From a bacterium (GTDB lineage: Bacteria; Zhuqueibacterota; QNDG01; JABMRT01), in the NCBI GenBank assembly GCA_011046415.1, contig DSAP01000090.1:4590-68589 (forward strand): a stretch of DNA of 64,000 nucleotides, given 5' to 3'. Position numbers and translations under genes: made by a program. Of this stretch, positions 1,392 to 46,668 are shown piece after piece (within the stretch, counting starts at the first letter, position 1; every line of letters starts with the position of its first letter). Below the pieces are notes generated by a model. That model searched no databases and was not told the origin of the DNA. It was given only the letters and a program-made list of their open reading frames with translations.

Positions 1392-3257
1392 TCAGAATGT
1401 GTAGCCGATCTCGCTCATCAGCATCCGTCCGGGCATGGGATAACCGTACATGGCCTGGTACGACGCGTCGAACGCGTTTTTCAGGGCGAGTTTCGCTTCC
1501 AGCGTCTTCAGGAATCGCCAGGAGACCGACAGGTCCACCACCGTATAATCCTTCATGGGATAGAGGTTGGGGAACGGGGCGGCCGAGTCCCTGCCCGTCC
1601 AGTCCTCGACCCGGACGAGTGTCCCCGTGAGCGTCAGCCCCGAAAACCGCCAGGACACGAACCCGCTGGTCTTCCGTTTCGGCATGTTGGGGATCGGATA
1701 TTTCATGTCGATGAAGGCGGAAACGATTCCGATTTCCGCCCGATCGGATGGGAACGCCGTGATCTCGATTTCAAGCCCCTTGTTCTCGATTTTCCCGACA
1801 TTGGTGAGTTGGAAACCCGACCCCGAGGCGCGTCGCGCCGGCGCGATCAGGTTGTCTCCGGTGATACGGAAAACGGCGGCGTCGATTTTCAGGATGCGTC
1901 CGATTTGCTGTCCGAATCCCGCTTCCAGGTTCCAGATTTCGTCGGGTTTGAGCGCCTCGTTCCGCGACGGGAAGAAATAGAGTTCCCGGATCGACGGACT
2001 GCGGAATCCCTTGGAGAAGTCCATGCGCACCGTACGGGTCTGGGTCACCTGGGCGACCAGGCCCAGCTTGGGTATCGAGACGGTCCCGAAGAGATCGTGG
2101 TGCTCCAGCCGGTATCCGGCGGAGAGGAGCAGGCGCGCCGGGAGGAGCTGCTGGATATGGATGTAAGGCGCATATTCCAGGATCGTTTTTTCCGTATACG
2201 CCACGCTGCCTTCGGCGTGGCCGCCGTACCGTTTCAGGTCGAATCCGATCGTCGTGGTGTTGCCGCGGATGGGCCGCATGTTGTGGTACGCGATCAGGCC
2301 GGTCATCCGGTCGGAGGAACGCCATCCGTCCGAGAATCGGTGCCGTCCGAAGTTGCCGTGCCATTTCAGATAGGATTCCCCGTAACGGCTCCTATGGTTC
2401 AGCGTCACGTCTCCGCCCCAGCGCAGGATGTCGTACCAGTCGTCGGTTTTCGGCGTAGTGGCAAATCCCGGATCGTAGAGATACAGATCGGCCAGGCTGG
2501 CGTTGACATCCATTGAGGTTTTTGAATTCAATGCATAGGACACGTTCCCCGTGAAGAAATTGCCTTCATAGGTGTTTTTGGCGTCTTTCCGGAAACCGTC
2601 TGTGCTCCGGCGCGCGGCGGTCAGGTTGTAAGACCATCTGCCCTTTCTCAGACTGTGCCGGAGGCCGAAGTCTTGGGTGTTGTAAGCGCCGTATCCGGCG
2701 TTCAGCCGGGTGCTGAAACCCTCCGCCTCCTTTTTCCCGGAGATGATGTTGATCACGCCGGCCGTGGCGTTGCTGCCATACAGGAAACTGGCCGGTCCGC
2801 GGACGACTTCGATGTGATCCACGCCATCCACGGAAAATTCATCCGCGATGGTGCAGCCCATCAGTCCCATGAAATCGGGGCGGCCGTTGCGCAGGATCAT
2901 CACGTGGGTGTCGGCCGTTCCGCCGATGCCGCGCATGGACAATTTGCCGGCGGCTACGCCGGCCGCGCCGTACCCCATCACATTCCATTGTGTCAGATGA
3001 AGGCCGGGAACATAGGTGTTGACCGCATCCAGTGCGGCATGGCTCGGGACCGATTGAATCCGGGCAGGCGTGATGACCGAGATGCTGGCGGCCAGATCCC
3101 GCTGCGCGCCCGCGGTCCGCGTTCCCGTCTTGACGACGGGGTTGAAGTAATAACGGACCGAGATGGAATCGGAGGCAGAAGCCGGTACTTTCGCGGAAAA
3201 CACAGCCGGGGAGGACAGAAAGATACAGAGAATCGAGAGAAAACATACATGCTTCAT
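1392..3257 (-). CDS. TonB-dependent outer-membrane receptor (about 620 aa, vitamin/small-ligand size class)
   Basis: Signal peptide MKHVCFLSILCIFLSSPAVFSA, plug-domain motifs (VVRGPASFLYGSNATAGVINII), long beta-barrel, C-terminal aromatic YTF. Start set at the Met that begins the signal peptide. Confidence 0.9.
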   Translation of the reverse strand: MKHVCFLSILCIFLSSPAVFSAKVPASASDSISVRYYFNPVVKTGTRTAGAQRDLAASISVITPARIQSVPSHAALDAVNTYVPGLHLTQWNVMGYGAAGVAAGKLSMRGIGGTADTHVMILRNGRPDFMGLMGCTIADEFSVDGVDHIEVVRGPASFLYGSNATAGVINIISGKKEAEGFSTRLNAGYGAYNTQDFGLRHSLRKGRWSYNLTAARRSTDGFRKDAKNTYEGNFFTGNVSYALNSKTSMDVNASLADLYLYDPGFATTPKTDDWYDILRWGGDVTLNHRSRYGESYLKWHGNFGRHRFSDGWRSSDRMTGLIAYHNMRPIRGNTTTIGFDLKRYGGHAEGSVAYTEKTILEYAPYIHIQQLLPARLLLSAGYRLEHHDLFGTVSIPKLGLVAQVTQTRTVRMDFSKGFRSPSIRELYFFPSRNEALKPDEIWNLEAGFGQQIGRILKIDAAVFRITGDNLIAPARRASGSGFQLTNVGKIENKGLEIEITAFPSDRAEIGIVSAFIDMKYPIPNMPKRKTSGFVSWRFSGLTLTGTLVRVEDWTGRDSAAPFPNLYPMKDYTVVDLSVSWRFLKTLEAKLALKNAFDASYQAMYGYPMPGRMLMSEIGYTF

Positions 3258-4682: not shown

Positions 4683-5549
4683 TTATGGGAAAAATTTCAG
4701 CGCGATCATCTTATGGATGAGTTTGGCCACGGCAAAGGGTGAATTCGGATCGTCCTCCCGGCAGGAGAGTTCGACCACATCGAATCCGACCACCTTTTTA
4801 TTGCTGAAGATCGTGGCCAGCAGGGCGAGGATTTCGTCCCATGTCATGCCGCCGGGTTCGGGCGTCCCGGTCGTGCGTACGACGCTCCAGTCCAGCACAT
4901 CGACGTCGAGGGTGATGAATACGGGATCGGGGAGGGCTTCGACGGCCGTTCGGAGGTCGAAGGCGCCTTTCCGGAATGCGTCCATCGTGCAGAGCTGGAT
5001 CTTTTCCGTCCGGATCCGGTCGGCTTCTTCCGCGGACATGCTCCGGATGCCGATCTGCAAGGTGTGTTCGGTCTCTTCGCGGATACGCGACATCACGCTG
5101 GCGTGGCTGAGGCGGCTTCCCTGATACGAATCTCTCAGATCCGCATGGGCGTCGAGCTGGATGACGGAGACGGCGCCGTGTTTTTCGCGGAGCGCCCGGT
5201 AATAACCGCCCGTGATCGAATGGTCACCGCCGATGACGACCGGAAATTTGTCCCGTTCCAGTATCGCTTTTGCCGCGTCTTGAATGGACTGGATCATCCT
5301 CTCCGGCGTGCTCGGGATGGCGGGCGGGGTGAGTGTGGATATGCCGATTTTGTACGGTTCCGTATCCAGCACTTCATCATAGAGTTCCACATAATACGAG
5401 GCGTCGATCACGGCATCCGGCGCCCCTGCCGTGCCCGCACCGCAGGAGATGCCTCCCTCGTAGGGGAAGGGAAGGATCGCCACGGCGGATGTATCCAGAT
5501 CCGTGAATTCGGGTTCCAGGTCCAGAAATTGTTTATGATACAGCTTCAT
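4683..5549 (-). CDS. speB: agmatinase (arginase/ureohydrolase family)
   Basis: Mn-binding motifs GGDHS, DAHADL and DVDVLD; 288 aa; overlaps the upstream deoxyhypusine-synthase-like gene by 17 nt. Confidence 0.9.
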   Translation of the reverse strand: MKLYHKQFLDLEPEFTDLDTSAVAILPFPYEGGISCGAGTAGAPDAVIDASYYVELYDEVLDTEPYKIGISTLTPPAIPSTPERMIQSIQDAAKAILERDKFPVVIGGDHSITGGYYRALREKHGAVSVIQLDAHADLRDSYQGSRLSHASVMSRIREETEHTLQIGIRSMSAEEADRIRTEKIQLCTMDAFRKGAFDLRTAVEALPDPVFITLDVDVLDWSVVRTTGTPEPGGMTWDEILALLATIFSNKKVVGFDVVELSCREDDPNSPFAVAKLIHKMIALKFFP

Positions 5550-6621
5550 CCTGTCCTGCCGAATCGAGTTTTTGCATCATTCCGGGAATCATCGAAAGGA
5601 GTCTCCGGTACGGACGCGGAGGATTCAATTCCAGCACATAGGCGGCGAGCAGGGGGAAAATGACGCTGTATTCGCCCCAGATCTGGACCAGCTTGTCCTC
5701 ATCGGCGGTCTGGTACTTGCCCCAGGTGACGGCCTCGCCGAAGGTGCAGCTCGACAGGCTGCCTTCCCGTTCCACGGCCGTGCCGATCTGGAGCCCCCGG
5801 TCGGCCCCCTCGAAGTCGACCCCGAGAATCTGGCTGATGGTCGGACCCGTCTGCTGGATGAAATTTTTCGGTCCGCCGCCTCCGAGTTCCACGAAACCGG
5901 TGCCGCCCGAGGCATAGGCGACCGCCGCGGATTCCAGAATGTCACGCTGGGCCGAGAGCCGGACCGGAAACCCCTCGCGGTCCGTGCGTGCCAGATTCAT
6001 GGCGATCGAGTGGTTGCTGTGGGAATCCCAGAATATGGGGACGCCCAGTTTCGCCGCGACCGCGACGAAACTGAGATCCGGATGCGGGGCGTTCTCGAGG
6101 GTCCATCTGCCGAGACGTTCGTTGAATTCCCAGCTTGCCAGGACCTTTCCGGACAGGGCCGCATGGTCTTCGCGGACGAAACGCCGGATGATGGCATCCT
6201 GGGCTTCGAGCGTCTCTTTTTCCCGGATCCCGATGTCGTAGATCCGCGTGTCTCCATGACGGCGAAGCTGATTGTCGTCACAGTGCGGGCTGATGGCTTT
6301 GACGGGCAATCCGAAGGCGAAATGCAGGTCGTGGTAGACCTGGGCGCCCGTCGAACAGACGATGTCGATGAATCCGTCTTCGAGGAGCGAGATCACCGCT
6401 CCTCCCATGCCGCCTGCGATGCCCGCGCCCGCGATGCCGAGCCAGATGGTGTCCCCGTTTTCGATCATCCTTCGGAACAGTTCCGCGCCGCGATAGACGT
6501 TTCTCGCCTCGAAGGCCGTGCGTCCCATATGGCCGAGCAGATCGGACGCACGCATCCCCTTTTCCAGCCGTTCAGGCCGGATATCCGGGGCGTCTTCAAA
6601 CAGGGACCGTTGGGAATTCAT
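5533..6621 (-). CDS. deoxyhypusine synthase-like protein (homospermidine-synthase-like)
   Basis: About 360 aa from MNSQRS; Gly-rich NAD-binding stretch GIAGAGIAGGMGG and deoxyhypusine-synthase-family conservation; overlaps the end of the arginine decarboxylase gene. Confidence 0.8.
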   Translation of the reverse strand: MNSQRSLFEDAPDIRPERLEKGMRASDLLGHMGRTAFEARNVYRGAELFRRMIENGDTIWLGIAGAGIAGGMGGAVISLLEDGFIDIVCSTGAQVYHDLHFAFGLPVKAISPHCDDNQLRRHGDTRIYDIGIREKETLEAQDAIIRRFVREDHAALSGKVLASWEFNERLGRWTLENAPHPDLSFVAVAAKLGVPIFWDSHSNHSIAMNLARTDREGFPVRLSAQRDILESAAVAYASGGTGFVELGGGGPKNFIQQTGPTISQILGVDFEGADRGLQIGTAVEREGSLSSCTFGEAVTWGKYQTADEDKLVQIWGEYSVIFPLLAAYVLELNPPRPYRRLLSMIPGMMQKLDSAGQDEAVS

Positions 6622-6631
6622 GATTTCATTC

Positions 6632-7180
6632 TCAATCGAGAAGCATGACCGCTGCGGCGAGGACGGTGGTCCAGAGTCCGTCCTTGTGGCCGCGCGCGGA
6701 CTGGCAGATGCTGCGGCTGATGAACTGGCGGTTTTTATCCGCGACATAGAGCTGTTTCCGCTCGTCCCATGCCACATCCGGATCGAGTTCGATGCCGAGG
6801 GTCGAGGCCAACATGGTCGCGGCCAGGTCTTCCGCGAAGTCGGAGGCCTTCTTCATGGTTTCACCGAACGCATGATGCTCGCTGATGTATCCGTACTGGA
6901 TCTTATCCTTGGGGTGGGCGAGTCCGATAGCGGAAGCGACCAGGCGATTGGGCTCATTCGTACATTCGCGCGCCATGACGACGAAGGTAATCTGACCGGG
7001 ACTCAGCTGTTTCTCGCCTTTTTCGCGGGAGATGATCTTGCAGTTGGGGGGGAAAATGCTCGACACGGTCACGAGATTGCAGATCTCGATCCCCGCGTCG
7101 CGAAGGGCGAGTTCGAAACTCTGCAGTTTGTTGCGGTGATACCCCATGCCCTTGGTGAAGAACATTTGTTTGGGCGTCAT
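6632..7180 (-). CDS. pyruvoyl-dependent arginine decarboxylase (PvlArgDC)
   Basis: About 183 aa beginning [13 protein letters not shown], characteristic of PvlArgDC; GGAGG ribosome-binding site upstream. Confidence 0.8.
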
Positions 7181-7573
7181 CTTATTCACATTGGCCTCCG
7201 TCCTCGATGTAATCGTCCAATGCAAGGGTTTCAGGAAAAATAACCGATCAAGATACCGAACTCCTGGATAAAAATCAATAAAAAATAAATTTTTATTTGA
7301 ATTTTTCGGTGCGGCGATTCACGCAGAAGAAGAGACGGGGGGACAGGATCGAACCGGAGACCCCGTACCGGATCGGCGGAGACTGGCAGAGTCGTCCGGA
7401 TTGTGAGGTACAAACGGCCGGATCCGTGCGGACCGTTTGAATGAGAAAACACCCTGTTTGCGTACCCGCCGGAGGGATGTTAAACCCCGCCATTCCGTAT
7501 TCAGGTCCTGAGAAACCAAGCAGGGCGGCCGGCCTTCTATCCATTCCGGTGATTTCCGGAAGACCGGTCGCGT

Positions 7574-8221
7574 TCAGCGCCTTGCGAGTCTGAAATCGAT
7601 TGGGATGGAAATTTTGACTTTCACCGGCCTGTCCCGCTGCAACGCAGGTTTCCATCGGATGGCGCGCACGGCAGCTTCCGCCGCTTCGTCGCATCCGTTG
7701 GGTCCCAGAGATTTCAGGATTTCCGTTTTCACGACCTGACCGGTTTCGTCGATATAGGCCATCACGATGACACGGCCTTCGATGCCGGAAATACGCGCGA
7801 TCTCGGGATAGACGAGATACTTCAGGATGGCCGGATACCCTCCGATGGGTTCGGGCCGGGTCTCAACGACCTCGAAGAAAAACGATTCTTCGGGTTCAAC
7901 CGATCTCCAGATGGGCGGCATTTCGCTGATTTTGTCCCACTCCCGGATATCCGGGATGTCGAGTTCCAGGAGATCCGTTTCCTTCTCGGCGGGGATGGGG
8001 ATAGAAGGACGTTGGGGCGGGACGGTCTTTTTTTCCACGAGGGTTTGCGGCGTTTCCGTCAGGGGGATGGGGCCGGGATTCTCAAAAAAAGTCCTGGAAT
8101 CCCGAAGGAATCTTTTGTTTCCCTGCAGGATCACGATGCAAAGAGAAAGCGCGATGATCAGGCCCAGTTCGAACAAACGCGTGTGCTCAAACCGACGTTC
8201 TGTGAAAATCTGGATGTCCAT
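7574..8221 (-). CDS. TonB-family energy transducer (N-terminal membrane anchor, Pro-rich linker, TonB C-terminal domain)
   Basis: TM helix LGLIIALSLCIVIL, proline-rich spacer, TonB C-terminal-like GYPAILKYLVYPEIARISGIEGRVIVMAYIDETGQV; start taken at MDIQIF. Confidence 0.7.
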   Translation of the reverse strand: MDIQIFTERRFEHTRLFELGLIIALSLCIVILQGNKRFLRDSRTFFENPGPIPLTETPQTLVEKKTVPPQRPSIPIPAEKETDLLELDIPDIREWDKISEMPPIWRSVEPEESFFFEVVETRPEPIGGYPAILKYLVYPEIARISGIEGRVIVMAYIDETGQVVKTEILKSLGPNGCDEAAEAAVRAIRWKPALQRDRPVKVKISIPIDFRLARR

Positions 8222-8283
8222 GGCGATCCTCCTTTCTTGCGGGAATGGTTCTTTTATCGTCACCGCTCCGGGATTTCTCCGCC

Positions 8284-8511
8284 TCATCTCTGACGCAGGA
8301 GGAAGAAAATGATAAAGAGACAGATCAGCATGAGCAGGATGGACATCAGCGCCCAGAAACCCGGATAGATTCTAAAAATCAACCCGAACCGGCGGCGGTC
8401 ACGCCGTCGCGCCAGGACTTGTCGCCAGATTTCATGACGGAGATGCGCCATGTCGCGTTCCGGCGGCCGGCTCATTTTCAGGATTTGTTCGATGTCGTTC
8501 ATGGTTTTCAT
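8284..8511 (-). CDS. small single-pass anti-sigma-factor-like membrane protein
   Basis: 75 aa; charged N-terminus, one C-terminal TM helix; sits directly downstream of the ECF sigma gene. Confidence 0.4.
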   Translation of the reverse strand: MKTMNDIEQILKMSRPPERDMAHLRHEIWRQVLARRRDRRRFGLIFRIYPGFWALMSILLMLICLFIIFFLLRQR

Positions 8512-8517
8512 AGCTGT

Positions 8518-9101
8518 TTTTTCAGTTGTTCGAGACCTCGTCGGATCTGTGTTTTGATCGTATTCTCGGGAATATGGAGGATGACCGCGATCTCGCGGAT
8601 CGGCAATTCCTCGTAATAACGTAAGGTCAGCACATCCTGATAACGCGGTTTGATTTTGTGCAGTGCCCGGAGCACACGGGCTGATTTGAGCTAGATTTCC
8701 TTTTGGTCTTCCTCGGCGGCGATTCCGGAGTCGGTGGAACTGTCCCCCGGGAGGACGGCAATCCGGGGTTCTGTCAGTCGTACCAGCTTCCGGTTCCTGC
8801 GGAAATGCTGGTGGATCTCATTGGTGGCGATCCGGTAGAGCCAGGCCGAGAAGGGCAGGCCTTTCCATTCGAAGTGCTGGATCCCATCCAGGGCTTTCAG
8901 GAAGGTGGAAGCGGTTAGGTCTTTCGTGAGCGTCTCGTCGCCCGTGCGCCGGAGGATATAATTGGAAATGGTCCCGTAGTATTTGTCGAAGAGAAATCGA
9001 AAGGCGGCCGGATCGGATTTCGACGCGGCAATCCATTTTTTGTCATCTGTGAACTCCGTATTCACGGACGCACCGCTTTTCGGGGTCTGCTTTCTCTTCA
9101 C
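8518..9101 (-). pseudogene. ECF (sigma-70 family) sigma factor interrupted by an in-frame TAG at 8691-8693
   Basis: Region 2 (FRFLFDKYYGTISNYILRR...) is encoded at 8694-9101 and region 4 (LPIREIAVILHIPENTIKTQIRRGLEQL) at 8518-8690 in the same frame, separated only by a TAG. GTG start at 9101. Confidence 0.7.
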
Positions 9102-9277
9102 TTACAAAATACCGAATTGAACGAAAAGTTTCGTTTTTTTTGACAGGGATTGAATTCATCGGGTGGTACCGCGACGAAACGGAAAGACATTTTCGGCTTG
9201 AACCTTTCCCGGGGTTTGAGTATTTTGTGTCGGATCGAAAGAAGAGGATCGTCGGGAAAGGCGGATTGATCTTAGCA

Positions 9278-9450
9278 AACTACTGGCTTTGCCAGTGGTT
9301 CACGATCTTAAACGGGTCGGCACTAAACGTGCCTTCTTTTGCTCGCGGCCTTTGGCCGCAATCAAAAGCCACCGGCTTTGCCGGTGGTCGTTAATTCCGT
9401 GGGATCACGCAAAGCCTTCCGGCGAGGCCTCAGGCCGGAAAGGCTTTGCC
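9278..9450. repeat. array of REP-like palindromic elements (GC arms flanking TTT)
   Basis: AACTACTGGC-TTT-GCCAGTGGTT (9278-9300), GCGGCC-TTT-GGCCGC (9345-9359), GCCACCGGC-TTT-GCCGGTGGTC (9368-9389), and the larger palindrome GCAAAGCCTTCCGGC...GCCGGAAAGGCTTTGC (9409-9450), in a 330-bp noncoding gap. Confidence 0.5.
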
Positions 9451-9469
9451 GTTCCTGAAAACCGGATTG

Positions 9470-10468
9470 TTACGCTTTGTTGCTGAACGCCTCGTCGAAG
9501 ACGCCCGCGGGCAGCGGATAATTCAGGGTTTTCAGAAATTCACAGGCATCGGCGGCGCCGAATTCACGGTCCATGCCGGGGTCTTCCCATTCGACCGAAA
9601 GGGGGCCGTTGTACCCGATCCGGTTCAATACCCGGATGATCCCTTCGAAGTCCACGTCGCCGCGACCGAGCGAGCGGAAATCCCATCCGCGGCCGGCCCG
9701 GCCGAAATTGAGATGCGAGCCGAGTATGCCGGTGGTGCCGTCCAGCGTCACGGCGCAATCCTTCATGTGGCAGTGATAGATCCGTTCCTCGAATTCCTCG
9801 AGGAATTTCACCGGATCCATGCCCTGCCACTCAAGATGGCTCGGGTCGAAATTGAAGCCGAAGGCCTCCCGGTACGCGATGGCGTCGAGTACCTTGCGCG
9901 TCGTGACGAAATCATAGGCGATCTCGGTCGGATGCACCTCGAGCGCGAACCGGACGCCGCATTCGTCGAACACATCCAGGATCGGGTTGAAGAGTTCTGC
10001 GAAATATTGATACCCTCTTTCGACTTCGTCCCAGTCGTTGGGGGGGAAGGAGTACAGCATATGCCAGATGGACGAACCGGTGAAGCCGTTCACGACCGGG
10101 ACGCCCAGATTGCGGGCGGCCCGCGCCGCCGCCTTCATGGAATCGATCCCGAACCGGCGTTTCTTTTCCGCATCGCCCTTGCAATCGTCCGGGACGAAGC
10201 CGTCCGACCGGTTGTCGTCGTTGGGATCCAGAATCAGCTGTCCTGTGAGATGATTGCTGATAGCCCAGGTCTTGAGTCCGTATTTGGCCAGGAGTTTGTG
10301 TCTGGCGTCGCAGTACGCCTTGTCCTCCGCGGCCCTGAAAACATCCATGTGATCGCCCCAGCAGGCAAGCTCCAAACCGTCATATCCCCAGTCCCGGGCT
10401 TTTTTGCACAGGGTTTCGAGGGGCAGGTCGGCCCACTGTCCGGTGAAGAGTGTGATGGGTCTGGGCAT
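9470..10468 (-). CDS. sugar phosphate isomerase/epimerase (xylose-isomerase-like TIM barrel)
   Basis: 332 aa; metal-binding barrel motifs (ALEVHP, CHMKD, WEDPGMD) typical of the AP-endonuclease-2 / TIM-barrel isomerase family. Confidence 0.8.
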   Translation of the reverse strand: MPRPITLFTGQWADLPLETLCKKARDWGYDGLELACWGDHMDVFRAAEDKAYCDARHKLLAKYGLKTWAISNHLTGQLILDPNDDNRSDGFVPDDCKGDAEKKRRFGIDSMKAAARAARNLGVPVVNGFTGSSIWHMLYSFPPNDWDEVERGYQYFAELFNPILDVFDECGVRFALEVHPTEIAYDFVTTRKVLDAIAYREAFGFNFDPSHLEWQGMDPVKFLEEFEERIYHCHMKDCAVTLDGTTGILGSHLNFGRAGRGWDFRSLGRGDVDFEGIIRVLNRIGYNGPLSVEWEDPGMDREFGAADACEFLKTLNYPLPAGVFDEAFSNKA

Positions 10469-20400: not shown

Positions 20401-20832
20401 ATGTACGTCAATCGATTTCTTAACCGAACGGAAACCTGGCGCTGGCTGGACGATCTGCAGCGGGAAATGAACCGTTTATTCGACGGGTACGGATTCACGC
20501 CGCAACGGGCTTTTCCAGCCGTGAACATCCGGGCCAATGCGGAAGAAGCCCTGGTTTCCGCAGAATTGCCAGGGGTGGAACTGAAGGATCTCCGCCTTTC
20601 CGTGATGAACAACACGCTGACGCTCGAAGGCGTGCGCAGGGGCGAACCCGTGAAAGAAGGAGAATCCGTCCATCGTCAGGAGAGGAAAATCGGGGATTTC
20701 AAACGATTTCTGGAACTGCCGTTTTCAGTGAATCCGGATCGAATCACCGCCGGTCTCAAGAACGGCATCCTGACGATCCGGCTGCCCCGCAGGGAAGAAG
20801 ACAAACCCAAATCCATCCAGATTCAGGGATAA
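20401..20832 (+). CDS. Hsp20/alpha-crystallin small heat-shock protein
   Basis: Alpha-crystallin domain (ALVSAELPGVELKDLRLSV...NGILTIRLP). Confidence 0.9.
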   Translation: MYVNRFLNRTETWRWLDDLQREMNRLFDGYGFTPQRAFPAVNIRANAEEALVSAELPGVELKDLRLSVMNNTLTLEGVRRGEPVKEGESVHRQERKIGDFKRFLELPFSVNPDRITAGLKNGILTIRLPRREEDKPKSIQIQG

Positions 20833-20839
20833 TCAGGAG

Positions 20840-21250
20840 GTGATCGCCATGGCTGAAAAGGCTGTTCAAAAAATGGAAAGCCAGGAAGTCGAACGGGTCG
20901 AACGAACCCGTTCAGGAAGGACTTTCCTGCCGCCGACGGACATCATCGAAACCGAAAGCGAGATCATTCTCCTTGCGGATATGCCGGGAGTCGATGAGAA
21001 GACCGTCGATATCATACTCGAGAATAAATTGCTGACGATTCAGGGGAATGTCGAAACCCGGGACGATAACAATCTCCAGACGGTGTATGCCGAATTCGAA
21101 TCCGGAGATTATTACCGCGCATTTACGCTGAGTGACGACATCGACCGGGAGAGGATCCAGGCCAAGCTGAAGAACGGCGTGCTGAAACTCGTTCTTCCCA
21201 AGGCGGAGACGGCGAAATCACGCAAGATTGCGGTCCACACCGGAGAATAA
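20840..21250 (+). CDS. Hsp20/alpha-crystallin small heat-shock protein
   Basis: Alpha-crystallin domain (IILLADMPGVDEKTVDI...NGVLKLVLPK). Confidence 0.85.
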   Translation: MIAMAEKAVQKMESQEVERVERTRSGRTFLPPTDIIETESEIILLADMPGVDEKTVDIILENKLLTIQGNVETRDDNNLQTVYAEFESGDYYRAFTLSDDIDRERIQAKLKNGVLKLVLPKAETAKSRKIAVHTGE

Positions 21251-27192: not shown

Positions 27193-29091
27193 ATGAAACG
27201 TGTCGTAAAATGGGGTCTCTTCCCGATTCTCGGCCTGCTGTCCTTAATCTGGTTTCTGATCCGCGTGATTCCCAAGCCGAGCCGTGTCACCTATCCCTGC
27301 ATCCAGGCGACGGCGCCCCTGGCCTCATCGTTCGTCCTCTGGCTGATGGGCCTGTTTTCCTCCGTGGTTTTGTTCAGGAAAGCGCGGGAATACCGGCTTC
27401 AGTCCCGGCATGGACTTTTCTCTCTGGCCGCGGTGGCGGGGGCGCTATTGTTTCTGATTTCATTCCTTCAGGACACGCATCCGGTCAAGGCCTTTCCCGT
27501 TTCGACGCTCGAAGGACCCAATCAGCCGATCGGGGAGGGAAAAGGCGTCCATCCCGGACGGGTGGTCTGGGTTCATGATCCCGATGCGACCAACGCCGAT
27601 TACAGTGCGTCCTGGATGAACTACTGGTATCAGGATGTCCATACGAATCAGGATGCCGTGAACCGGATGTTCTCGGACGGACTGCGGCGGTTGACGGGGG
27701 ATACCTCCGACGCCGCCGCCTGGGATTCAATTTTCCGCTATCACAATAACAGCACCGGCAAAGGGGACGTCGGGTATCAGGCCGGAGAGAAAATCGTCAT
27801 CAAGATCAATCTGAACGGACGGAACAATTATCCCCAGGAACCCAACATCAATACGTCCCCTCAAATCTGTTACACCGTGCTGGATCAGTTGATTCGTGTC
27901 GTGGGTGTGGCCCAGGCCGATATCCACATCGGCGATCCCAACATCGATTTCGACACCCCTCACTGGAACAAATGCCATTCCGCGTTTCCCGATGTAAAAT
28001 ACTGGGGGACGGGGGCCGGTCGCACCCCTCCGGTCCGATCGGAGGAAAAGGTGCTCTTTACCAGCGACGGTTCCATCGGCGACTGGCTGCCTCAAAGTTA
28101 TCTGGATGCCGCCTATATGATCAACATTCCTGTATTCAAAAAGCACCATCGCTCCGGGATATCATTGTCGAGCAAGAACCATTTCGGATCCGTTACCCCC
28201 TTCAATCAGGGCGCATGGCACTGGCATCCCAGTCTGCCCTGTCCTGACGGCGGTGCGGATGTGAGCAACGGCGAGATGGGCGCATACCGGTGTTTCGTCG
28301 ATCTCATGGGGCACAAGGATCTGGGCGGAAAGACGATCCTCCATCTCGTCGACGGTTTATGGGGTTCCACAAACTGGGGGCATCCTCCCGTCAAATGGCG
28401 CATGACGCCGTTCCACGACGACTGGCCCTCGTCGCTCTTTCTCTCCCAGGATCCGGTGGCCGTCGAATCCGTCTGCTTTGACTTTTTGTATCATGAATTC
28501 GATTCAAGTCACCCGACCGAAGGCGCGTATGACCGGCGGGACAATTCCGGTCCTTTCCCTCAATATGCGGGGACCCAGGATTATTTGCATCAGGCCGCGG
28601 ATTCCCGGAACTGGCCGGCCGGCATCCAGTATGATCCGGAAAACGACGGCACGATCCTGCCCGCGAGTCTGGGAGTCCACGAACACTGGAACAATCCCGA
28701 GGACAAGCAGTATTCTCGGAATCTCGGTCTGGACACGGGGATCGAACTGTTGCTGATATCGGGGTCGTCCGCGGTCGGGGATCCCGGGACAGGCATGGTT
28801 CGGGGATTCATCCTGGAACAGAACTATCCCAATCCGTTCAACCCGATGACCGAGATCCGCTACCGGCTGTTTTCCTCCGCCTCGGTATCCCTGGCGATCT
28901 ATCGGGCAGACGGGCGGCGGATCCGCACCCTGGCCGAAGGATCCCAGGATGCCGGGATCCACGTCCGGCAATGGGACGGTCTGACCGACAGCGGCCTTCC
29001 CGCGGCCTCGGGTGTGTATTTCTGCCGGATCGATGTGAGGAATGAGGACGGGATTTCCCAACAGGTACGCAAGATGGTTCTGAACCGGTAG
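27193..29091 (+). CDS. DUF362-domain protein with N-terminal hydrophobic segments and a C-terminal T9SS sorting domain
   Basis: Three N-terminal hydrophobic helices, DUF362 core (HFGSVTPFNQGAWHWHP...GHKDLGGKTILHLVDGLWG), C-terminal ILEQNYPNPFNPMTEIRY (T9SS type-A sorting-domain hallmark). TAG stop. Confidence 0.7.
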   Translation: MKRVVKWGLFPILGLLSLIWFLIRVIPKPSRVTYPCIQATAPLASSFVLWLMGLFSSVVLFRKAREYRLQSRHGLFSLAAVAGALLFLISFLQDTHPVKAFPVSTLEGPNQPIGEGKGVHPGRVVWVHDPDATNADYSASWMNYWYQDVHTNQDAVNRMFSDGLRRLTGDTSDAAAWDSIFRYHNNSTGKGDVGYQAGEKIVIKINLNGRNNYPQEPNINTSPQICYTVLDQLIRVVGVAQADIHIGDPNIDFDTPHWNKCHSAFPDVKYWGTGAGRTPPVRSEEKVLFTSDGSIGDWLPQSYLDAAYMINIPVFKKHHRSGISLSSKNHFGSVTPFNQGAWHWHPSLPCPDGGADVSNGEMGAYRCFVDLMGHKDLGGKTILHLVDGLWGSTNWGHPPVKWRMTPFHDDWPSSLFLSQDPVAVESVCFDFLYHEFDSSHPTEGAYDRRDNSGPFPQYAGTQDYLHQAADSRNWPAGIQYDPENDGTILPASLGVHEHWNNPEDKQYSRNLGLDTGIELLLISGSSAVGDPGTGMVRGFILEQNYPNPFNPMTEIRYRLFSSASVSLAIYRADGRRIRTLAEGSQDAGIHVRQWDGLTDSGLPAASGVYFCRIDVRNEDGISQQVRKMVLNR

Positions 29092-39276: not shown

Positions 39277-40041
39277 ATGAAATCCCATTTTGAAAAACAC
39301 GTCCTGCGTCATCCTCCGTGGTATCCGATTTTAATCACCGCAACCCTTTTCTCGTTTTTGGGATGTCAACAATCCAGAAGGGAGAGCGCCATGCAGCAGG
39401 GAGAAGACCCGTATGTCAGACAAAGGCATGCGATGGTTTCAAAGCAGATCGCCGGCCGCGGGGTGAAGGATCCGCGTGTCCTGGCCGCGATGGAAAAGGT
39501 GCCGCGACATCTCTTCGTTCCCGACAACATCAGGTCGCACGCCTATGAGGACAGCCCCCTGCCGATCGGATACAATCAGACCATATCCCAGCCTTACATC
39601 GTGGCGTACATGACGGAGCAGCTTGTCCTGGAGGGCGACGAACGTGTTCTCGAGGTCGGTACGGGGAGCGGTTATCAGGCCGCCGTGCTGGCCGAACTGG
39701 TCCCTGAGGTGTATACGATCGAGATCATCGAACCCCTGTCGGTCACGGCACGGGAACAGATCGAGAAGGCGGGATTTGAGAACGTCCACTTCCGGGTCGG
39801 CGACGGATACCTGGGATGGCCGGAAGCCGCGCCGTTCGATGCGATCATGATCACGGCCGCTCCCAGGCAGATACCGGAAACGCTCATCGGCCAGCTCCGG
39901 GTTGGTGGAAGGATGATTGTTCCCGTCGGACAATGGCATCAGGAACTCCTCCTTATCACCAAAAAAGAAAAAGACTATTCCGTGAAGAAGCTCCTGCCCG
40001 TACGTTTCGTTCCCATGGTCCGATCCCGGTCTGATGAATGA
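39277..40041 (+). CDS. pcm: protein-L-isoaspartate O-methyltransferase with N-terminal lipoprotein-type signal peptide
   Basis: PIMT motifs (VLEVGTGSGYQAA, GDGYLGWPEAAPFDAI, GGRMIVPVG) preceded by a 40-aa extension MKSHFEKHVLRHPPWYPILITATLFSFLGC. Confidence 0.8.
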   Translation: MKSHFEKHVLRHPPWYPILITATLFSFLGCQQSRRESAMQQGEDPYVRQRHAMVSKQIAGRGVKDPRVLAAMEKVPRHLFVPDNIRSHAYEDSPLPIGYNQTISQPYIVAYMTEQLVLEGDERVLEVGTGSGYQAAVLAELVPEVYTIEIIEPLSVTAREQIEKAGFENVHFRVGDGYLGWPEAAPFDAIMITAAPRQIPETLIGQLRVGGRMIVPVGQWHQELLLITKKEKDYSVKKLLPVRFVPMVRSRSDE

Positions 40042-40195
40042 AACGACCGGCTTATCGTTTCAAGGCCGTTGTCCATATTCCCGATATCCCGGTCACGAAC
40101 CGGGATATCTTCCGGAGATGAAACATTATCGAGAAAATCCTGTAAAATATAATGGACTTATCAAAAAACTCTTAATCGAAGAAAGATCGGAAAAA

Positions 40196-40858
40196 ATGTC
40201 GCCTGCCGAAGGAAGAAAGTGGAGAAAGTCGGATTCGAACCGGATCATCGCCGGCGTCTGCGGGGGGCTGGCTGAGTATTTCAAGATCGATGCCACCGTT
40301 GTCCGTATTCTGTGGTTGGTTTCCATTTTTCTGAACGGCCTGGGTCTGCTCGCCTATCTGGTGGCGCTGGTGGTTTTGCCGGCCGCTTCGGATGATCCGG
40401 CGTCACGTGAAGGAGGCAGGAAATCCGGTTCCGGAGGCTGGCTTATTCTCGGTGTTCTGCTTATCCTCTTGGGTCTTTTCTGGGGGGTGCATAACTGGGG
40501 ATGGTACGCCGGGTTCCCCTGCCCGGGATTTACCCATTGGGGGAGGCAGGACTTCTGGCCGGTATTGCTGGTTGTCCTCGGTATTCTCTATCTGGTGCAT
40601 GTCCTCAAGGATTCGAAGGCCGGCGGCGGATCCGGCGGATCGTCCGGATCGACCAATACATCACGTTGGCCGTTTCATCGCACGACAGATGACCGGGTGA
40701 TCGGCGGGGTCTGCGGCGGACTGGCCCGGCATGTCCGCATCGATCCCACCCTGGTACGAATCGGAACCGTTGTTTTCGTACTGATGACGGGCGTCGTATT
40801 CGGCGTTTTGCTTTATGCGGCGGCCCTCGTCCTGATACCCGAAGAAAAGAAGGCATGA
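40196..40858 (+). CDS. membrane protein with two PspC domains
   Basis: RIIAGVCGGLAEYFKIDATVVRILWLV and again RVIGGVCGGLARHVRIDPTLVRIGTVVF, each followed by TM helices; start uncertain (40118 or 40196). Confidence 0.7.
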   Translation: MSPAEGRKWRKSDSNRIIAGVCGGLAEYFKIDATVVRILWLVSIFLNGLGLLAYLVALVVLPAASDDPASREGGRKSGSGGWLILGVLLILLGLFWGVHNWGWYAGFPCPGFTHWGRQDFWPVLLVVLGILYLVHVLKDSKAGGGSGGSSGSTNTSRWPFHRTTDDRVIGGVCGGLARHVRIDPTLVRIGTVVFVLMTGVVFGVLLYAAALVLIPEEKKA

Positions 40859-40885
40859 CCAGATGAAAAGATCTGGATTGGTTCC

Positions 40886-41428
40886 ATGAAAGAAGAAAAA
40901 CGTTCCATCATCCCCGGTGTCCTGCTCGTTTTGGCCGGTTTATGGTTGTTGTCACGCGATGTGATTCAACAACACGGTATCTGGGAACGCATTTATCCGC
41001 TTGTTATTCTGGTTTTTGCCGGATTTTACTTAATCGACTGGGTCCGCAGGAAAAAGGAGGACACCTTTTTCTGGGCTGTTTTCTTTCTGCTTACCGGCCT
41101 TTTCTATTTGTTGCGGAATTATGATTTAATTCCCTACCTCTATATCGAGGAGTACTGGCCGGTTTTTTTCCTTTTCTGGGGACTGGGTTATCTGGTACGT
41201 TTTTTTCTCCGTCCCGCCGAATGGAACATCCTGATTCCCGCCATCCTCTTCCTCTTTATGGGGGCCTTCTTTTTTTTACATGCGGCGGGTGGTGTTCTTG
41301 ATTTTCCCGATATTGAGATCGAGAAATACTGGCCCGCCGGTCTTATCGTCATCGGATGCGGGTTGTTGATCAGTGCATTATTCAAATCTTTAAAAAACAA
41401 TTCTGACCAGGGGCAGATTCGATCCTGA
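40886..41428 (+). CDS. polytopic membrane protein (LiaF-N-terminal-like/DUF5668-like), PspC partner
   Basis: 180 aa, five or six TM helices, Trp/Phe-rich; 27 bp after the PspC gene. Confidence 0.45.
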   Translation: MKEEKRSIIPGVLLVLAGLWLLSRDVIQQHGIWERIYPLVILVFAGFYLIDWVRRKKEDTFFWAVFFLLTGLFYLLRNYDLIPYLYIEEYWPVFFLFWGLGYLVRFFLRPAEWNILIPAILFLFMGAFFFLHAAGGVLDFPDIEIEKYWPAGLIVIGCGLLISALFKSLKNNSDQGQIRS

Positions 41429-41472
41429 ACCCGCATTGTCACATATGTTAAATTAAATTCATATTTTTCTCC

Positions 41473-41501
41473 TTGACATTCCGCCTGAAATCATCTAAAA
41501 T
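41473..41501 (+). promoter_or_regulatory. sigma-70-like promoter (TTGACA-N17-TAAAAT) for hybrid kinase 1
   Basis: Exact -35 hexamer, 17-nt spacer, good -10; about 70 bp upstream of the TTG start. Confidence 0.45.
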
Positions 41502-41572
41502 CAAGTTGGTATTAAAGATTCACTCCATTTGACCAGTTTCTCTATCGACAGTAAACCGGGAGCGTAAGCGGG

Positions 41573-44047
41573 TTGTCGATTTTCTTTAAAAAAGGAAAAG
41601 ATGCATCATTTGAAAAGGACCAGTCCCTTTCTTTCATTGCGTGGGGTGTGGGACAGGATTTCTATGCGGATGCCGTTCATCCCGAACAGCGCACCCAGAA
41701 ACTGCTCTCGGAGATACAGCGGCGTACTTTGGCCGATCAGGCACTGATTGCCGGTTCGAATTTCGACACTGAAACGCTCGAAATCCTGTATTGTGCCCCT
41801 CCCAAAGAACCTTCGCTTATCCAGCCGGATGTCATCCGGCTTTTGCTTGAGAAGGTATTCGTCGAAAATAAAATCCTCGATCTGAACGAATTCGCGGATA
41901 TCGATCCGGTCGTACGGTATCTGAAGGACAGTCAGGTTTCCTCGATTCTGATCTGCCCTCTCAATATCCACGAAAAAACCATCGAGGCGTTGATTGTCGT
42001 CAATTATTATGAGGGTCATGATAACCGGATGCAGGAGTTCATCCAATTCGTCTCCGCCACATTGGCCGTTTCGCTGCAGAACACGGGGCTCTATGCCATC
42101 CTCCATGACAAGGAAGAGGAAATTTCCGACTGGTCCGAACAGGTTGGCCAACGGATCGAGACCGACGCCAAACAATTTCTTGAAAAGGAATTTCAGTATT
42201 ACAATCTGTTTGAAGAAGCCCCCTATGGCATCATCGTCCATAGCATCGAAGGGCGTATTCTTGAGGCCAACCAGGCCGCCCGTCAGATTCTCGGGTATGA
42301 CAAAAAAGGCCTTTTAGAGAAGAAATGGTCGGATCTCGTCGAAGAAGACCTGGATGTCCGGCTGAATACTTTCTTTGCGGATATTTTGCGTACCCAGAAA
42401 GCCGGCACCCTCGAAATTTCGTTCATAAAAAAAGACGGAACACAGTTCTGGGCGGATCTCTGTTCTCAGCGGGTCAGGCTTCACGGAAAGATCGCCCTCG
42501 AGACCTTTATCCGGGATATCTCTCAGCAAAAGGTGCGAGAGGCGGAATTGCAGGACAAGCAAAATAAATATGAGGTTTTCGTCGAGTCGTCTCTGGTCGG
42601 TGCGTATGTGATCCAGAATGGACGCATCCATTTCACCAATGAGAAATTCGAAGAATTATGCGGATTTCCGAAAAAAGAACTCTTTGACAGTGAGTTTATT
42701 CAACTGATCGCCCCGGAAGACCGGAGCATGGTTTTGAGTCGCGAGATGCGCAGGGAGAAGGGTGATAGTGTTCCCGATCAATATGAAATCCGTTTTCTTA
42801 AAAAAGATGAGGAACGCTGGTGGGGCGAAGTGCGTTGCCGGAGGATCGAAGTGGATGGCAACCCGGCTATACTCGGTAATGTGATCGATGTCACCCAGCG
42901 AAAACGCCTCGAAGTTCAGCTTCTTGAAAGCCAGAAAATGGAATCCATCGGCACGCTCGCCGGTGGCATCGCCCATGATTTTAATAACCTCCTCGGCGGT
43001 ATCCTGGGATATGCATCGCTGTTGATGAGTGATATGCCCAAAGATCACATCTATTTTGAAGACATCCATACTATCGCAGAAACCGCCAAAAAGGCAGCGG
43101 ACCTTACCAACCGGCTCCTGGCCTTTGCGCGGGGCGGCAAATATCAGGTGACAGCGATCGACAGCAACCGAATTGTGGATGATGTGGTGGCCATTCTTTC
43201 CAGAACCGTCGACCGTTCAATCGCCATAGAAACCCATCTGGTAAAGAACTTATGGCATATCAAGGGGGATTCCCAGCAGATTCATCAGGCGTTTCTCAAT
43301 ATTTGTCTCAATGCGATCGAGGCCATGCCGGGCGGTGGAAAACTGATGATATCCACGGCGAACGTTATCCTGGACGAAGCGTTCGCACAGGCACAGATGG
43401 GGGGCAGTCCCGGTGATTACGTGCGGATTACCGTAAGCGACACCGGCATCGGCATGGACGAGAAAACCAGACGTCGGATTTTCGAACCCTTCTTTACCAC
43501 CAAACCCGCCCAGGCGGCCAAAGGCCTCGGACTCGCCATGGTTTACGGCATTGTGAAAAATCATGAGGGCGCAGTTCTTGTAGACAGCGTGCTGGGGAGC
43601 GGCAGTAAATTTACACTCTATTTTCCGAAATATACGGAGGAGGAGAGTCCGGAGCCTGAATCCGGTGAACCGGTTCTTTCTGCCAAAAAGGGGACAGTGC
43701 TGCTCGTCGACGATGAAGCGGTCATTCGCCGTGTGGCCAAACGGATGCTCGAGAGAGGGAACTATGAGGTGATTTCGGCCAAGGACGGCCAGGAGGCGCT
43801 GGCGATTTATGAAGAAAGACAAAAAGATATTCATCTGGTGCTGATCGACCTGATCATGCCGGGAATGAACGGGACCGAAACGGTTGAAAAGCTGAAGAAG
43901 ATCAATCCCGATATCAAAGTCATTTATACCAGCGGATACGGTCTCGGCGATCATCCCGAACTGCAACATCACAATGTGGACATGTTTATCCAGAAACCGT
44001 TTCAGACTGAAATCCTGATCGAGAAAGTCGCGCAGCTGCTTTCCTGA
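41573..44047 (+). CDS. hybrid sensor histidine kinase (GAF-like, two PAS, HisKA, HATPase_c, receiver)
   Basis: H-box IAHDFNNLLGGILGYASLL; N/G1/F/G2 boxes (NAIEAM, DTGIGM, FEPFFTTK, GLGLAMV); C-terminal receiver with phospho-Asp in VLIDLIMPGMNG. TTG start. Confidence 0.85.
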   Translation: MSIFFKKGKDASFEKDQSLSFIAWGVGQDFYADAVHPEQRTQKLLSEIQRRTLADQALIAGSNFDTETLEILYCAPPKEPSLIQPDVIRLLLEKVFVENKILDLNEFADIDPVVRYLKDSQVSSILICPLNIHEKTIEALIVVNYYEGHDNRMQEFIQFVSATLAVSLQNTGLYAILHDKEEEISDWSEQVGQRIETDAKQFLEKEFQYYNLFEEAPYGIIVHSIEGRILEANQAARQILGYDKKGLLEKKWSDLVEEDLDVRLNTFFADILRTQKAGTLEISFIKKDGTQFWADLCSQRVRLHGKIALETFIRDISQQKVREAELQDKQNKYEVFVESSLVGAYVIQNGRIHFTNEKFEELCGFPKKELFDSEFIQLIAPEDRSMVLSREMRREKGDSVPDQYEIRFLKKDEERWWGEVRCRRIEVDGNPAILGNVIDVTQRKRLEVQLLESQKMESIGTLAGGIAHDFNNLLGGILGYASLLMSDMPKDHIYFEDIHTIAETAKKAADLTNRLLAFARGGKYQVTAIDSNRIVDDVVAILSRTVDRSIAIETHLVKNLWHIKGDSQQIHQAFLNICLNAIEAMPGGGKLMISTANVILDEAFAQAQMGGSPGDYVRITVSDTGIGMDEKTRRRIFEPFFTTKPAQAAKGLGLAMVYGIVKNHEGAVLVDSVLGSGSKFTLYFPKYTEEESPEPESGEPVLSAKKGTVLLVDDEAVIRRVAKRMLERGNYEVISAKDGQEALAIYEERQKDIHLVLIDLIMPGMNGTETVEKLKKINPDIKVIYTSGYGLGDHPELQHHNVDMFIQKPFQTEILIEKVAQLLS

Positions 44048-44113
44048 TCCTCCGATCCCATCCGGTGCCTGCAATTTCGTCCAAAAAAAATAAAAACAAA
44101 ACAGTTCTCAATT

Positions 44114-44129
44114 TGGAACAAGGTTTGCT
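44114..44129 (+). promoter_or_regulatory. possible sigma-54 promoter (TGGAAC-N5-TTGCT) upstream of hybrid kinase 2
   Basis: Correct GG-N10-GC spacing; -24 deviates from the consensus (A for C after GG); about 90 bp upstream of the start. Confidence 0.3.
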
Positions 44130-44220
44130 TTTCGGTTAAGAGATCATGGATTCTCTGACTGTTAATGTGTTTTGATAAAGACGGCGGTGTTCAGCAGGAT
44201 GCTATCCGGAAACTTTGTCT

Positions 44221-46668
44221 ATGCAGATAAGTCCAGATAAAACAGAAATCTCGGATGGTCTTCTCTCCGAGCGGCTACTCGAAGAACTCTATTCGAAGGC
44301 AGATATCCTGTATTTTCTGCTGGACGATCAATTCCAGATTGTTTCATGCAATGTCACGGCACAGGAAAAAATGGGCCATGACAAAAAACAACTGGCCGGA
44401 AAAAAATTCCTCGATCTGGTTCCGAAAATCGATCAGGCCGATTTTGAGAAAAAACTCCAGATATGTGCGACCAAAGGTTATCTGCGACATTTCATCGCCT
44501 CGCTGCGCGACCATCACAACAAATCGATCGATGTCGGCGTCAACGGGTTGTTGATCGTTTCAGAGGATGGCGGTCAGTCACATTTACGGCTTTTTATCAA
44601 GGATATTTCGGAGCAGGTACGCAATGCACGACAGCGTCTCCTCTCCACCCAGATTCTGCAATATCTGACTCAAAAGCCAAAAGAGAAAGATGCCATTCGT
44701 TATCTGCTTCGTGAAATCTGGGAAAGCCGCCTCTCGACCGGTCTCGGAATCTTTCTTGAGGATTCCTTCGGCAAGAAATTTTCTCTCGGCACATGGGGGA
44801 ATCTCGGATCCAGTTCCGAGAATACGTTTTCCGAACAACCCGCATGGAATCCCCGTAAATGGACGCGGGTCCGGGATGCGGTCAGGGATATTTTTTCTGT
44901 CCGGTGGACGGATCACGGCAGTTTCTGGGTCGATTCCCTGTCCGATGTGGTTCTTGAGCTGGAAAATTTTCCGGAAAAGGATAATCTGCTCGCGTTGTCC
45001 GATTATGAATCCCTGGCCATCTTCCCCCTCAACACGAAGACCTATTCAGGCTATCTCGTTCTGACGCACACAGCCTATGGGCGCTGGGATCGTGAGGATG
45101 TCGAGTTCTTTGAGTCGCTGATTACATCCCTGTTGCTGCTCGAATCCGAAACTCCCATTGACGACGTAGCCTTTTCTGCACCCCAACCGACTGCGTTCCT
45201 CCAACAGATACCGTTTATCGGGGTGCTGTATATTCAGAAAGGCCGGATCCGGTTTGCCAACCCCTGGATGCATGAAGTCCTCGGTTTTTCGGAGGAAGAA
45301 TTCCTCGATAAACCGGTTCTGGATATCGTGGAACCGGCTTATCATGAAGTTGCCGAGAATCTGACGGTTGAGATCCGGTCTGAAGCGCATCATTCCCGGT
45401 GTTGGGAAATCGGATTCAGGGACAGCGAGGGCAAATCCCGGCTGACGGACTGTGTTGTCGCGCCCTGCGAGAAGGACGGATCTCAAATCTGGTACCTCAA
45501 CGCCAGGGAATCCGTTCAAAAAGACGAGGAAGACGAATCCGTCAAGGCCAGGAAACTGGAATCTCTCGGCACCCTGACAGACGGTATCGTGCATGATTTT
45601 AACAATGTACTGTCGAATCTAATGGGCTACAGTTCACTTTTAAGCGAAGAGGTTCCCAAAGACAGTCCTTATTACGAGGATGTTCAGGAGATCGCCAAAA
45701 CAAGCGAAAAGGCCTCCCAACTCACCAGCCGTTTGCTTTCATTCACCCAGGACAAACCCCATGTCGTCAAGGATCTGAATATAAACGGCCTTATTACCGA
45801 GGTGGCCGGGGTTCTCTCGCGGACGATCGAAAAAAACATCACGATCCAGGCTGAACTCGACGATCAACTCAAATGCATCGAGGGAGACGCCGGCCAGATT
45901 CAGCAGGCTTTTCTTCAGGTGGCATTCAACGCACGAGATGCCATGCCGATGGGAGGGAAACTGCGTTTTCAAACCCGCAACATGAGTCTCAGTGAAAATG
46001 CGGCCAAACATCAGAACGGTGCGAAATCCGGAGAATACGTCCAGATTATTATCAGTGATACGGGACAGGGGATGAACGCCAAGATCAGGGAGCAGGTTTT
46101 CAACGCCCAGTTCTCCACCAAAAACCAATCGGGACGTGGATATGGATTGACCCTTGTCCAGGATGTCGTCCAGAAGCATCAGGGATTTATATCGGTCTTC
46201 AGCGATATGACAAAAGGCACCATTTTTAAAATCCATTTCCCGGCCGCCGAGAAGACTGTGAGGGAAATCTCGAACCCCGTTCCTTATTCGCATGCTCACA
46301 CACGCGAGACCATCCTTCTTATAGAAGATCAAACGAAATTCCGTGAGAGTGCCATTAAGATGCTGAGTCATTACGGATACAAGGTGATCGGCGCAGAGAA
46401 TCCGAATGAGGCCATGGCGATCTACAAAAAATACATAAACCGAATCGATGTGGTCATTCTCCAGATGATTTCACCGGGTGTGGAGGTTCAGAAAATACTG
46501 GCCGCGCTTAAGAAAATCAACCCGGCGGTCCGTATTATCGCTTCAGCCAATCCGGGCGAAGATGCGTTAATAGATCCGCGTCTCCGAAAATATTTTGCAG
46601 GTTTTGTCCAGAAGCCTTTCGACCAACGCCTGCTTCTCCGCGAGATTCAGGGTGTCATGAACGCCTGA
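44221..46668 (+). CDS. hybrid-type sensor histidine kinase (PAS, HisKA, HATPase_c, C-terminal pseudo-receiver)
   Basis: H-box IVHDFNNVLSNLMGYSSLL; intact N/G1/G2 boxes (NARDAM, DTGQGM, GYGLTLV). The C-terminal receiver has Gln in place of the phospho-accepting Asp (VVILQMISPG). Confidence 0.8.
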   Translation: MQISPDKTEISDGLLSERLLEELYSKADILYFLLDDQFQIVSCNVTAQEKMGHDKKQLAGKKFLDLVPKIDQADFEKKLQICATKGYLRHFIASLRDHHNKSIDVGVNGLLIVSEDGGQSHLRLFIKDISEQVRNARQRLLSTQILQYLTQKPKEKDAIRYLLREIWESRLSTGLGIFLEDSFGKKFSLGTWGNLGSSSENTFSEQPAWNPRKWTRVRDAVRDIFSVRWTDHGSFWVDSLSDVVLELENFPEKDNLLALSDYESLAIFPLNTKTYSGYLVLTHTAYGRWDREDVEFFESLITSLLLLESETPIDDVAFSAPQPTAFLQQIPFIGVLYIQKGRIRFANPWMHEVLGFSEEEFLDKPVLDIVEPAYHEVAENLTVEIRSEAHHSRCWEIGFRDSEGKSRLTDCVVAPCEKDGSQIWYLNARESVQKDEEDESVKARKLESLGTLTDGIVHDFNNVLSNLMGYSSLLSEEVPKDSPYYEDVQEIAKTSEKASQLTSRLLSFTQDKPHVVKDLNINGLITEVAGVLSRTIEKNITIQAELDDQLKCIEGDAGQIQQAFLQVAFNARDAMPMGGKLRFQTRNMSLSENAAKHQNGAKSGEYVQIIISDTGQGMNAKIREQVFNAQFSTKNQSGRGYGLTLVQDVVQKHQGFISVFSDMTKGTIFKIHFPAAEKTVREISNPVPYSHAHTRETILLIEDQTKFRESAIKMLSHYGYKVIGAENPNEAMAIYKKYINRIDVVILQMISPGVEVQKILAALKKINPAVRIIASANPGEDALIDPRLRKYFAGFVQKPFDQRLLLREIQGVMNA

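Follow-up and report, generated by a model that had tools for sequence, protein, structure and literature searches.

Several described systems come close to the sigma gene that is the subject of this report. In bacterial sigma factors, region 4 recognises the -35 element of the promoter and anchors sigma on the beta-flap of RNA polymerase. A sigma gene may carry an amber codon and still keep some function; for example, the rpoS amber allele of Escherichia coli K-12 has partial activity through suppression or internal initiation. In E. coli, UAG followed by C is a weak termination context. Promoters of the SigW type have the consensus TGAAAC-N16-CGTA. Crystal structures of ECF holoenzymes indicate that the linker between regions 2 and 4 runs via the active-centre cleft and out through the RNA exit channel to region 4 (PMC6372665). 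Finally, SigO-RsoA of Bacillus subtilis is an ECF-like sigma with split domains, in which separate region 2 and region 4 polypeptides can form an active factor (PMC7826278).

The gene that we compare with these systems lies on the minus strand of a 64-kb stretch of DNA, which was analysed over its whole length and is referred to as the window. Translation of 8508-9101 (minus strand) gives a single internal stop in one open frame, reading ...AAEEDQKEI, stop, LKSARVLRALHK...KKQL, stop; in a fuller form, it is ...SGIAAEEDQKEI, stop, LKSARVLRALHKIKPRYQDV...EQLKKQL, stop. The internal stop is the amber codon TAG at 8691-8693 (minus strand; 'cta' on the plus strand), which is codon 125 of a 185-codon gene, and the base after it is C, i.e., a UAG-C context. 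From the probable start at GTG 9065 to the stop there are 124 codons (8694-9065, minus strand), which encode region 2 and most of the linker between regions 2 and 4. Region 4 follows at 8508-8690 (minus strand) as 60 in-frame codons and a TGA stop (8508-8510), and this segment is translated within sigma only given readthrough or reinitiation.

Both halves are readily recognised. The N-terminal piece matches Pfam Sigma70_r2 (PF04542) with an E value of 5.9e-15 (55 bits, the cut-off being 24), and the piece after the TAG matches Sigma70_r4_2 (PF08281; E 5e-17) and Sigma70_r4 (PF04545; E 7e-14). When the two pieces are joined, the sequence matches the region 2 and region 4 domains plus Pfam Sigma70_ECF, and it scores 101 bits against the NCBIfam ECF superfamily model TIGR02937 (cut-off 42.9). 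The translation and the Pfam matches thus bear out an earlier note on this DNA, which described regions 2 and 4 of an ECF sigma factor as lying in one frame, parted only by the TAG at 8691-8693. The layout is also that of the ECF (group 4) sigma factors, with regions 2 and 4 only, a short linker and 185 codons, where about 180-200 amino acids would be expected. However, the uninterrupted reading frame of a functional ECF member is broken here by the TAG at codon 125, and so the gene is a member of the ECF (group 4) sigma-70 family by descent, but a disrupted one. The amber codon is located at the C-terminal end of the region 2/4 linker, five residues ahead of the region 4 profile match; that is, it sits at the boundary between linker and region 4 and leaves both Pfam domains complete.

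The limits of the gene differ somewhat from the span 8518-9101 given before: the end is at 8508, and the true start is probably GTG 9065, not GTG 9101. The longest ORF does begin at GTG 9101 and yields a 136-aa product, which is the form annotated in the databases (P0001, HDQ44962.1). GTG 9065 is favoured because it gives 185 codons, exactly the length of the orthologues, which start at the aligned position (those in loci L004 and L009 likewise begin with GTG there), and because a conserved promoter at 9108-9133 would set the transcript start at about 9100.

This putative autoregulatory ECF-type promoter (9108-9133, minus strand) reads TGAAAC-N15-GGTATT, with a -35-like TGAAAC at 9133-9128 and a -10-like GTATT at 9112-9108. 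TGAAAC-N15-GTATT resembles ECF promoters such as the SigW consensus. When five orthologous upstream regions are aligned, GAAAC and G[TC]ATT do not vary. The motif TGAAAC-N15-G[TC]ATT occurs once in the 64-kb window, where 0.22 copies would be expected, and exactly once per locus in the 12 loci that were fetched (L001-L012), always just upstream of the sigma gene. The conservation of this motif suggests that the sigma gene may be autoregulated.

The spacer between this promoter and the stop of the AP_endonuc_2 gene has a feature of its own, a closely packed cluster of hairpins at 9270-9470 (minus strand), five or six in number and nearly perfect. The core GGCAAAGCC, which three of the hairpins share, is found nowhere else in the window. 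Folded as RNA, the cluster has an energy of -96.3 kcal/mol (z -8.4), and one hairpin is terminator-like. The element matches no Rfam family, and L009, in which the orthologous spacer is shorter, lacks it. It may be an array of terminators, an inserted small repeat or an RNA of unknown type.

A homologue search over 5.8 billion proteins returned 706 matches, and the best 120 of these were examined for length. In this set, 119 of the 120 proteins are 179-247 aa long and have both domains; the sole 136-aa entry is the window organism's own. The closest relative among the matches listed is 64% identical, and the named matches are mostly from candidate division KSB1. Intact orthologues from KSB1 and related uncultured bacteria (e.g., P0005 in GCA_013202295.1, P0002 and P0003) are 51-64% identical to the window sigma and 185 aa long. 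Two other searches added no relatives: a tblastn scan of 185,579 species representatives found nothing, and when the protein database was searched with the 60-aa region 4 segment, which is shorter than the word index requires, the window's own entry was the sole match.

The neighbouring genes are conserved as well. In the KSB1 locus L009 (GCA_013202295.1), AP_endonuc_2 is followed by sigma (185 aa), then by a 75-aa gene and a TonB_C gene, exactly as in the window. In L005-L008, the sigma gene (185 aa) and the 75-aa gene are followed by genes for a pyruvoyl arginine decarboxylase (PvlArgDC), a deoxyhypusine-synthase-like protein (DS) and an arginase-family protein, and these three are the genes found after the TonB_C gene in the window. 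This conserved synteny supports the orthology of the window sigma and the KSB1-type sigmas. The KSB1-type orthologues are the nearest counterparts of the window gene; they share with it the length of 185 aa (counting through the TAG), the neighbours and the upstream TGAAAC-N15-G[TC]ATT. They differ in that all of them are uninterrupted, the stop codon being present only in the window genome. A disrupted gene set against intact orthologues in conserved synteny is the pattern of a recent nonsense allele.

The first of the neighbours, at 8284-8511 (minus strand), encodes a 75-aa single-pass membrane protein, a putative anti-sigma partner, the ATG of which overlaps the stop of the sigma gene in the sequence ATGA (8508-8511 in the window). 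The same overlap is present in every orthologous locus examined (L004, L005, L009 and L012). The window protein is 48% identical to two of its orthologues and 32% identical to a third. Compared with Pfam and NCBIfam, it matches no family, no anti-sigma domain model and no FecR. We regard it as a candidate minimal anti-sigma factor, its position being what points to this role. Next is a gene for a TonB C-terminal-domain protein at 7574-8287 (minus strand; Pfam TonB_C E 4e-20, TIGR01352 E 2e-14). The protein has 215 aa from the called start at 8221, and the longest ORF, from an ATG at 8287 that overlaps the stop of the 75-aa gene, has 237 aa. This gene has the same position in the KSB1 locus L009 and is absent in L005 and L012. 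As a separate observation, a polyamine-type gene set at 4683-7225 (minus strand), consisting of a pyruvoyl-dependent arginine decarboxylase, a deoxyhypusine-synthase-like protein and an arginase/agmatinase-family protein, stays linked to the sigma/75-aa pair in the distant orthologous locus L005.

The cluster of sigma, 75-aa and TonB-C genes that the earlier note described thus exists and is conserved in L009, but its description as a cell-surface-signalling-like unit is not supported. The likeness to FecI/FecR/FecA signalling is that an ECF sigma gene precedes one for a membrane protein and that a TonB-related gene is close by. The Fec system, however, has a FecI-like sigma, FecR and a TonB-dependent signalling transducer, none of which is found in the window cluster. 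The NCBIfam models nearest to the window sigma are of the BldN, SigY, SigM and SigW types, with no equivalog model reaching its cut-off, and no FecI-type model is among the best 25 NCBIfam models listed. No outer-membrane transducer of the TonB-dependent kind, with its N-terminal signalling domain, is encoded in the cluster. A TonB-dependent receptor is encoded no nearer than 1392-3257, about 4 kb away and past unrelated genes, and it has only Plug and barrel matches on record. The label fails because the sigma is not FecI-like, there is no FecR, the TonB-like protein is not a transducer and some orthologous loci lack the TonB_C gene. Another comparison is with SigW of B. subtilis, which is the best full-length match of the window sigma to a solved structure (PDB 5wuq; E 2.6e-18) and whose type of promoter the putative window promoter resembles. 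Here too there is a difference: the window partner, unlike RsiW, has no recognised anti-sigma domain.

Every syntenic orthologue examined is uninterrupted, and the stop occurs in the window lineage only. At the column of the TAG, 34 homologues have a variable residue (N in 14, K, D, R and H in three each, E, Q and S in two each, Y and A in one each), and the aligned codon in four orthologues is AAA, GAC, CGA or GCA. Among the residues seen at this column, K, E, Q, S and Y can each be reached from TAG by one base change. The earlier note proposed to compare this codon in related genomes and asked whether it was Tyr, Gln or Trp. The relatives always have a sense codon there, but no single ancestral codon stands out, and at 64% identity or less the relatives have diverged too far for one to be assigned.

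The same TAG is found in several assemblies. It is identical in a JGI contig of sample 3300022547 (62.5 kb, L001), a contig that is reported in two JGI samples, in NODE_15 of the ENA assembly ERZ1742330 (121.6 kb, coverage 17.8x, L002) and in the Logan assembly of run SRR7787019 (L003). The same DNA is also in an NCBI TPA MAG, where the halves are annotated separately as HDQ44962.1 (136 aa) and HDQ44961.1 (55 aa). Over about 19 kb, neither L001 nor L002 differs from the window (100% identity). The number of the JGI sample is also given in a paper for a MAG named 'wilburensis', a hint that the DNA may come from spring sediment. One could argue from complete identity over 19 kb that the four assemblies come from overlapping read sets, in which case an artefact might have been shared by all of them and the true genome would have a sense codon; the agreement indeed shows reproducibility across pipelines rather than independent populations. 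However, the same base was obtained by three or four different assembly pipelines, from an ENA contig with 17.8x coverage and a JGI contig in two samples. Consensus substitution errors are very rare at such depth, and no homopolymer or repeat was found at the amber site. Since the same DNA is in four assemblies, we consider an assembly error very unlikely, and a sequencing artefact of any kind has only a very small chance of explaining the stop. The earlier note had listed a nonsense mutation, a sequencing error and programmed readthrough as options; the identical TAG in the JGI, ENA, Logan and NCBI TPA sequences argues against the second, and the first fits best. Phase variation was also considered, and it was rejected because the site has no repeat or homopolymer.

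The TAG codon is an ordinary stop in this DNA. In a greedy set of 57 likely window genes, 26 end with TGA, 23 with TAA and eight with TAG, and the TAG-ended proteins that were checked finish just past their last domain. For example, in a LeuA-like protein (46796-48424), LeuA_dimer reaches residue 530 of 542, in an NtrC-like activator (49355-50728), HTH_8 reaches residue 450 of 457, and a 632-aa protein (27193-29091) has a C-terminal FlgD_ig tail. Past the TAG at 29089-29091 there is another long open frame, which reads the next gene in an alternative frame and matches no family. These eight endings, which in the proteins checked agree with the domains, uphold the earlier claim that TAG is a normal stop and that the code is not reassigned.

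Could the TAG in the sigma gene nevertheless be recoded in a programmed manner, by pyrrolysine, a suppressor tRNA or a reassigned code? The only point for this idea is that the frame runs on into a well-conserved domain. In addition to the eight TAG-ended genes, which are inconsistent with such recoding, the 57-gene list, with frames checked by eye, has no other gene in the 64-kb window that is interrupted in frame, and hence no other TAG inside a gene. (A GC3-based screen for further interrupted frames was too noisy, as antisense frames pass it too, and the greedy gene list was used instead.) A tRNA scan of the 64-kb window found no tRNA, and no Rfam family was detected in it at gathering thresholds. 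The RNA around the TAG folds no better than shuffled sequence (z +0.64), there is no stable structure downstream of the codon, the residue aligned with it in homologues is variable and unimportant, and none of the listed homologues shares the stop. We therefore give hardly any credence to recoding. The programmed readthrough offered in the earlier note has no support either, given the lack of structure and of a conserved stop in any relative.

Other genes in the window deserve a brief mention. Between the LeuA-like gene and the NtrC-type activator gene there is a 225-aa protein (48536-49213, plus strand) with HisKA and no detectable HATPase_c, which may be a truncated or atypical histidine kinase. 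The region 40034-46668 (plus strand) looks like an envelope-stress-type neighbourhood; membrane proteins with a PspC domain or of a LiaF-like type are encoded there, and after them come two PAS hybrid histidine kinase/receiver proteins in tandem (824 and 817 aa). Two tandem Hsp20/alpha-crystallin genes (143 and 136 aa) are located at 20401-21250 (plus strand).

The state of the rest of the unit bears on whether the interrupted gene still functions. The region 4 segment keeps all of its nearly invariant residues. The ratio of region 4 identity to N-terminal identity, measured against the orthologues, is 1.09, and among the intact orthologues themselves it is 1.03-1.16. The 75-aa partner gene and the promoter motif are undamaged. 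This absence of damage in region 4, promoter and partner gene points to a recent mutation. However, the same lack of decay fits equally well with continued use of region 4, and this counts against a simple loss of the gene.

Such use would require that the allele be leaky or functional, either by a low level of near-cognate readthrough at UAG-C or by reinitiation downstream, which would produce a two-piece sigma. The position of the split is favourable because it leaves both Pfam domains complete, and a GTG at 8673-8675 (minus strand) is in frame 15 nt after the TAG and would give a 55-aa region 4 product. This GTG, the only candidate for a restart, has been called as the start of a separate gene by both JGI and NCBI. 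However, GTG 8675 lacks the Shine-Dalgarno sequence that about half of the genes in the window have: none is at a working distance, and the nearest AAGGA is 22 nt away on the upstream side. Nor is there any structure or other signal near the stop. The rpoS amber allele of E. coli K-12, which keeps partial activity, lends some support to a leaky allele. The two cases are alike in having an in-frame TAG in a sigma gene with the locus otherwise intact, and the rpoS allele is a loss-of-function or hypomorphic one that can persist. They differ in that the rpoS stop interrupts a group 2 sigma close to its N-terminus and has known suppression and internal initiation, whereas the window stop is between the domains of a group 4 sigma.

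SigO-RsoA (PMC7826278) sets a precedent for regions 2 and 4 on two polypeptides, which would also be the arrangement in the window. SigO and RsoA, however, have a gene each, with its own start, and their separation is conserved in the family; the window has one stop codon, no ribosome-binding site for the second part and relatives that are fused. Thus, GTG 8675 does not have the translation start signals of its own that a second polypeptide of the SigO-RsoA kind would have, and a split architecture is not seen among the relatives. The other 119 of the best 120 homologues are unsplit and the syntenic orthologues examined are all fused, so the split is unique to the window and derived. In addition, the stop severs the linker that normally tethers the two domains through the polymerase (PMC6372665). 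On balance, we think it unlikely, but worth keeping in mind, that the allele is leaky or works in two pieces. A bolder version, in which the amber codon has turned a fused ECF sigma into a split one, with a fragment of 124 aa and one of 55 aa, the latter made by reinitiation at GTG 8675, assembling on RNA polymerase, or in which readthrough sets a deliberately low dose of sigma, seems to us decidedly improbable.

The explanation that we prefer, with a probability of about 0.72, is that a genuine single-base change has put an amber codon into a conserved and probably autoregulated ECF sigma gene, here the orthologue of an uncultured KSB1-like bacterium. The stop is real and confined to the window lineage, and nothing else in the unit is damaged. 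Translation from GTG 9065 would stop at codon 125 and leave region 2 and the linker without region 4. With region 4 missing and the linker cut at this point, the truncated sigma should be inactive or nearly so. Therefore, from the roles of region 4 and the linker we infer that the amber mutation most likely inactivates or severely weakens the sigma factor. Should the promoter be autoregulated, expression of the operon would remain basal. The early stop should also lower expression of the 75-aa and TonB-like genes, because translational coupling at the ATGA would be lost and possibly through Rho polarity. The earlier note expected that inactivation would deregulate the unit; loss of the sigma would instead make its regulon uninducible.

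What do these results mean? As a recent nonsense allele, the window gene would be one more regulator lost in a natural population, which is an ordinary event and matters little. If, on the other hand, the two fragments were active together, it would represent a naturally occurring step in the evolution of split sigmas, such as SigO-RsoA. For those who use the databases, HDQ44962.1 (136 aa) and HDQ44961.1 (55 aa), both named as "sigma-70 family", are the halves of one disrupted gene. A by-product of modest value is the recognition of a conserved module of sigma and 75-aa partner in KSB1-type bacteria, and its likely autoregulatory promoter, TGAAAC-N15-GTATT, could serve for predicting the regulon in complete genomes.
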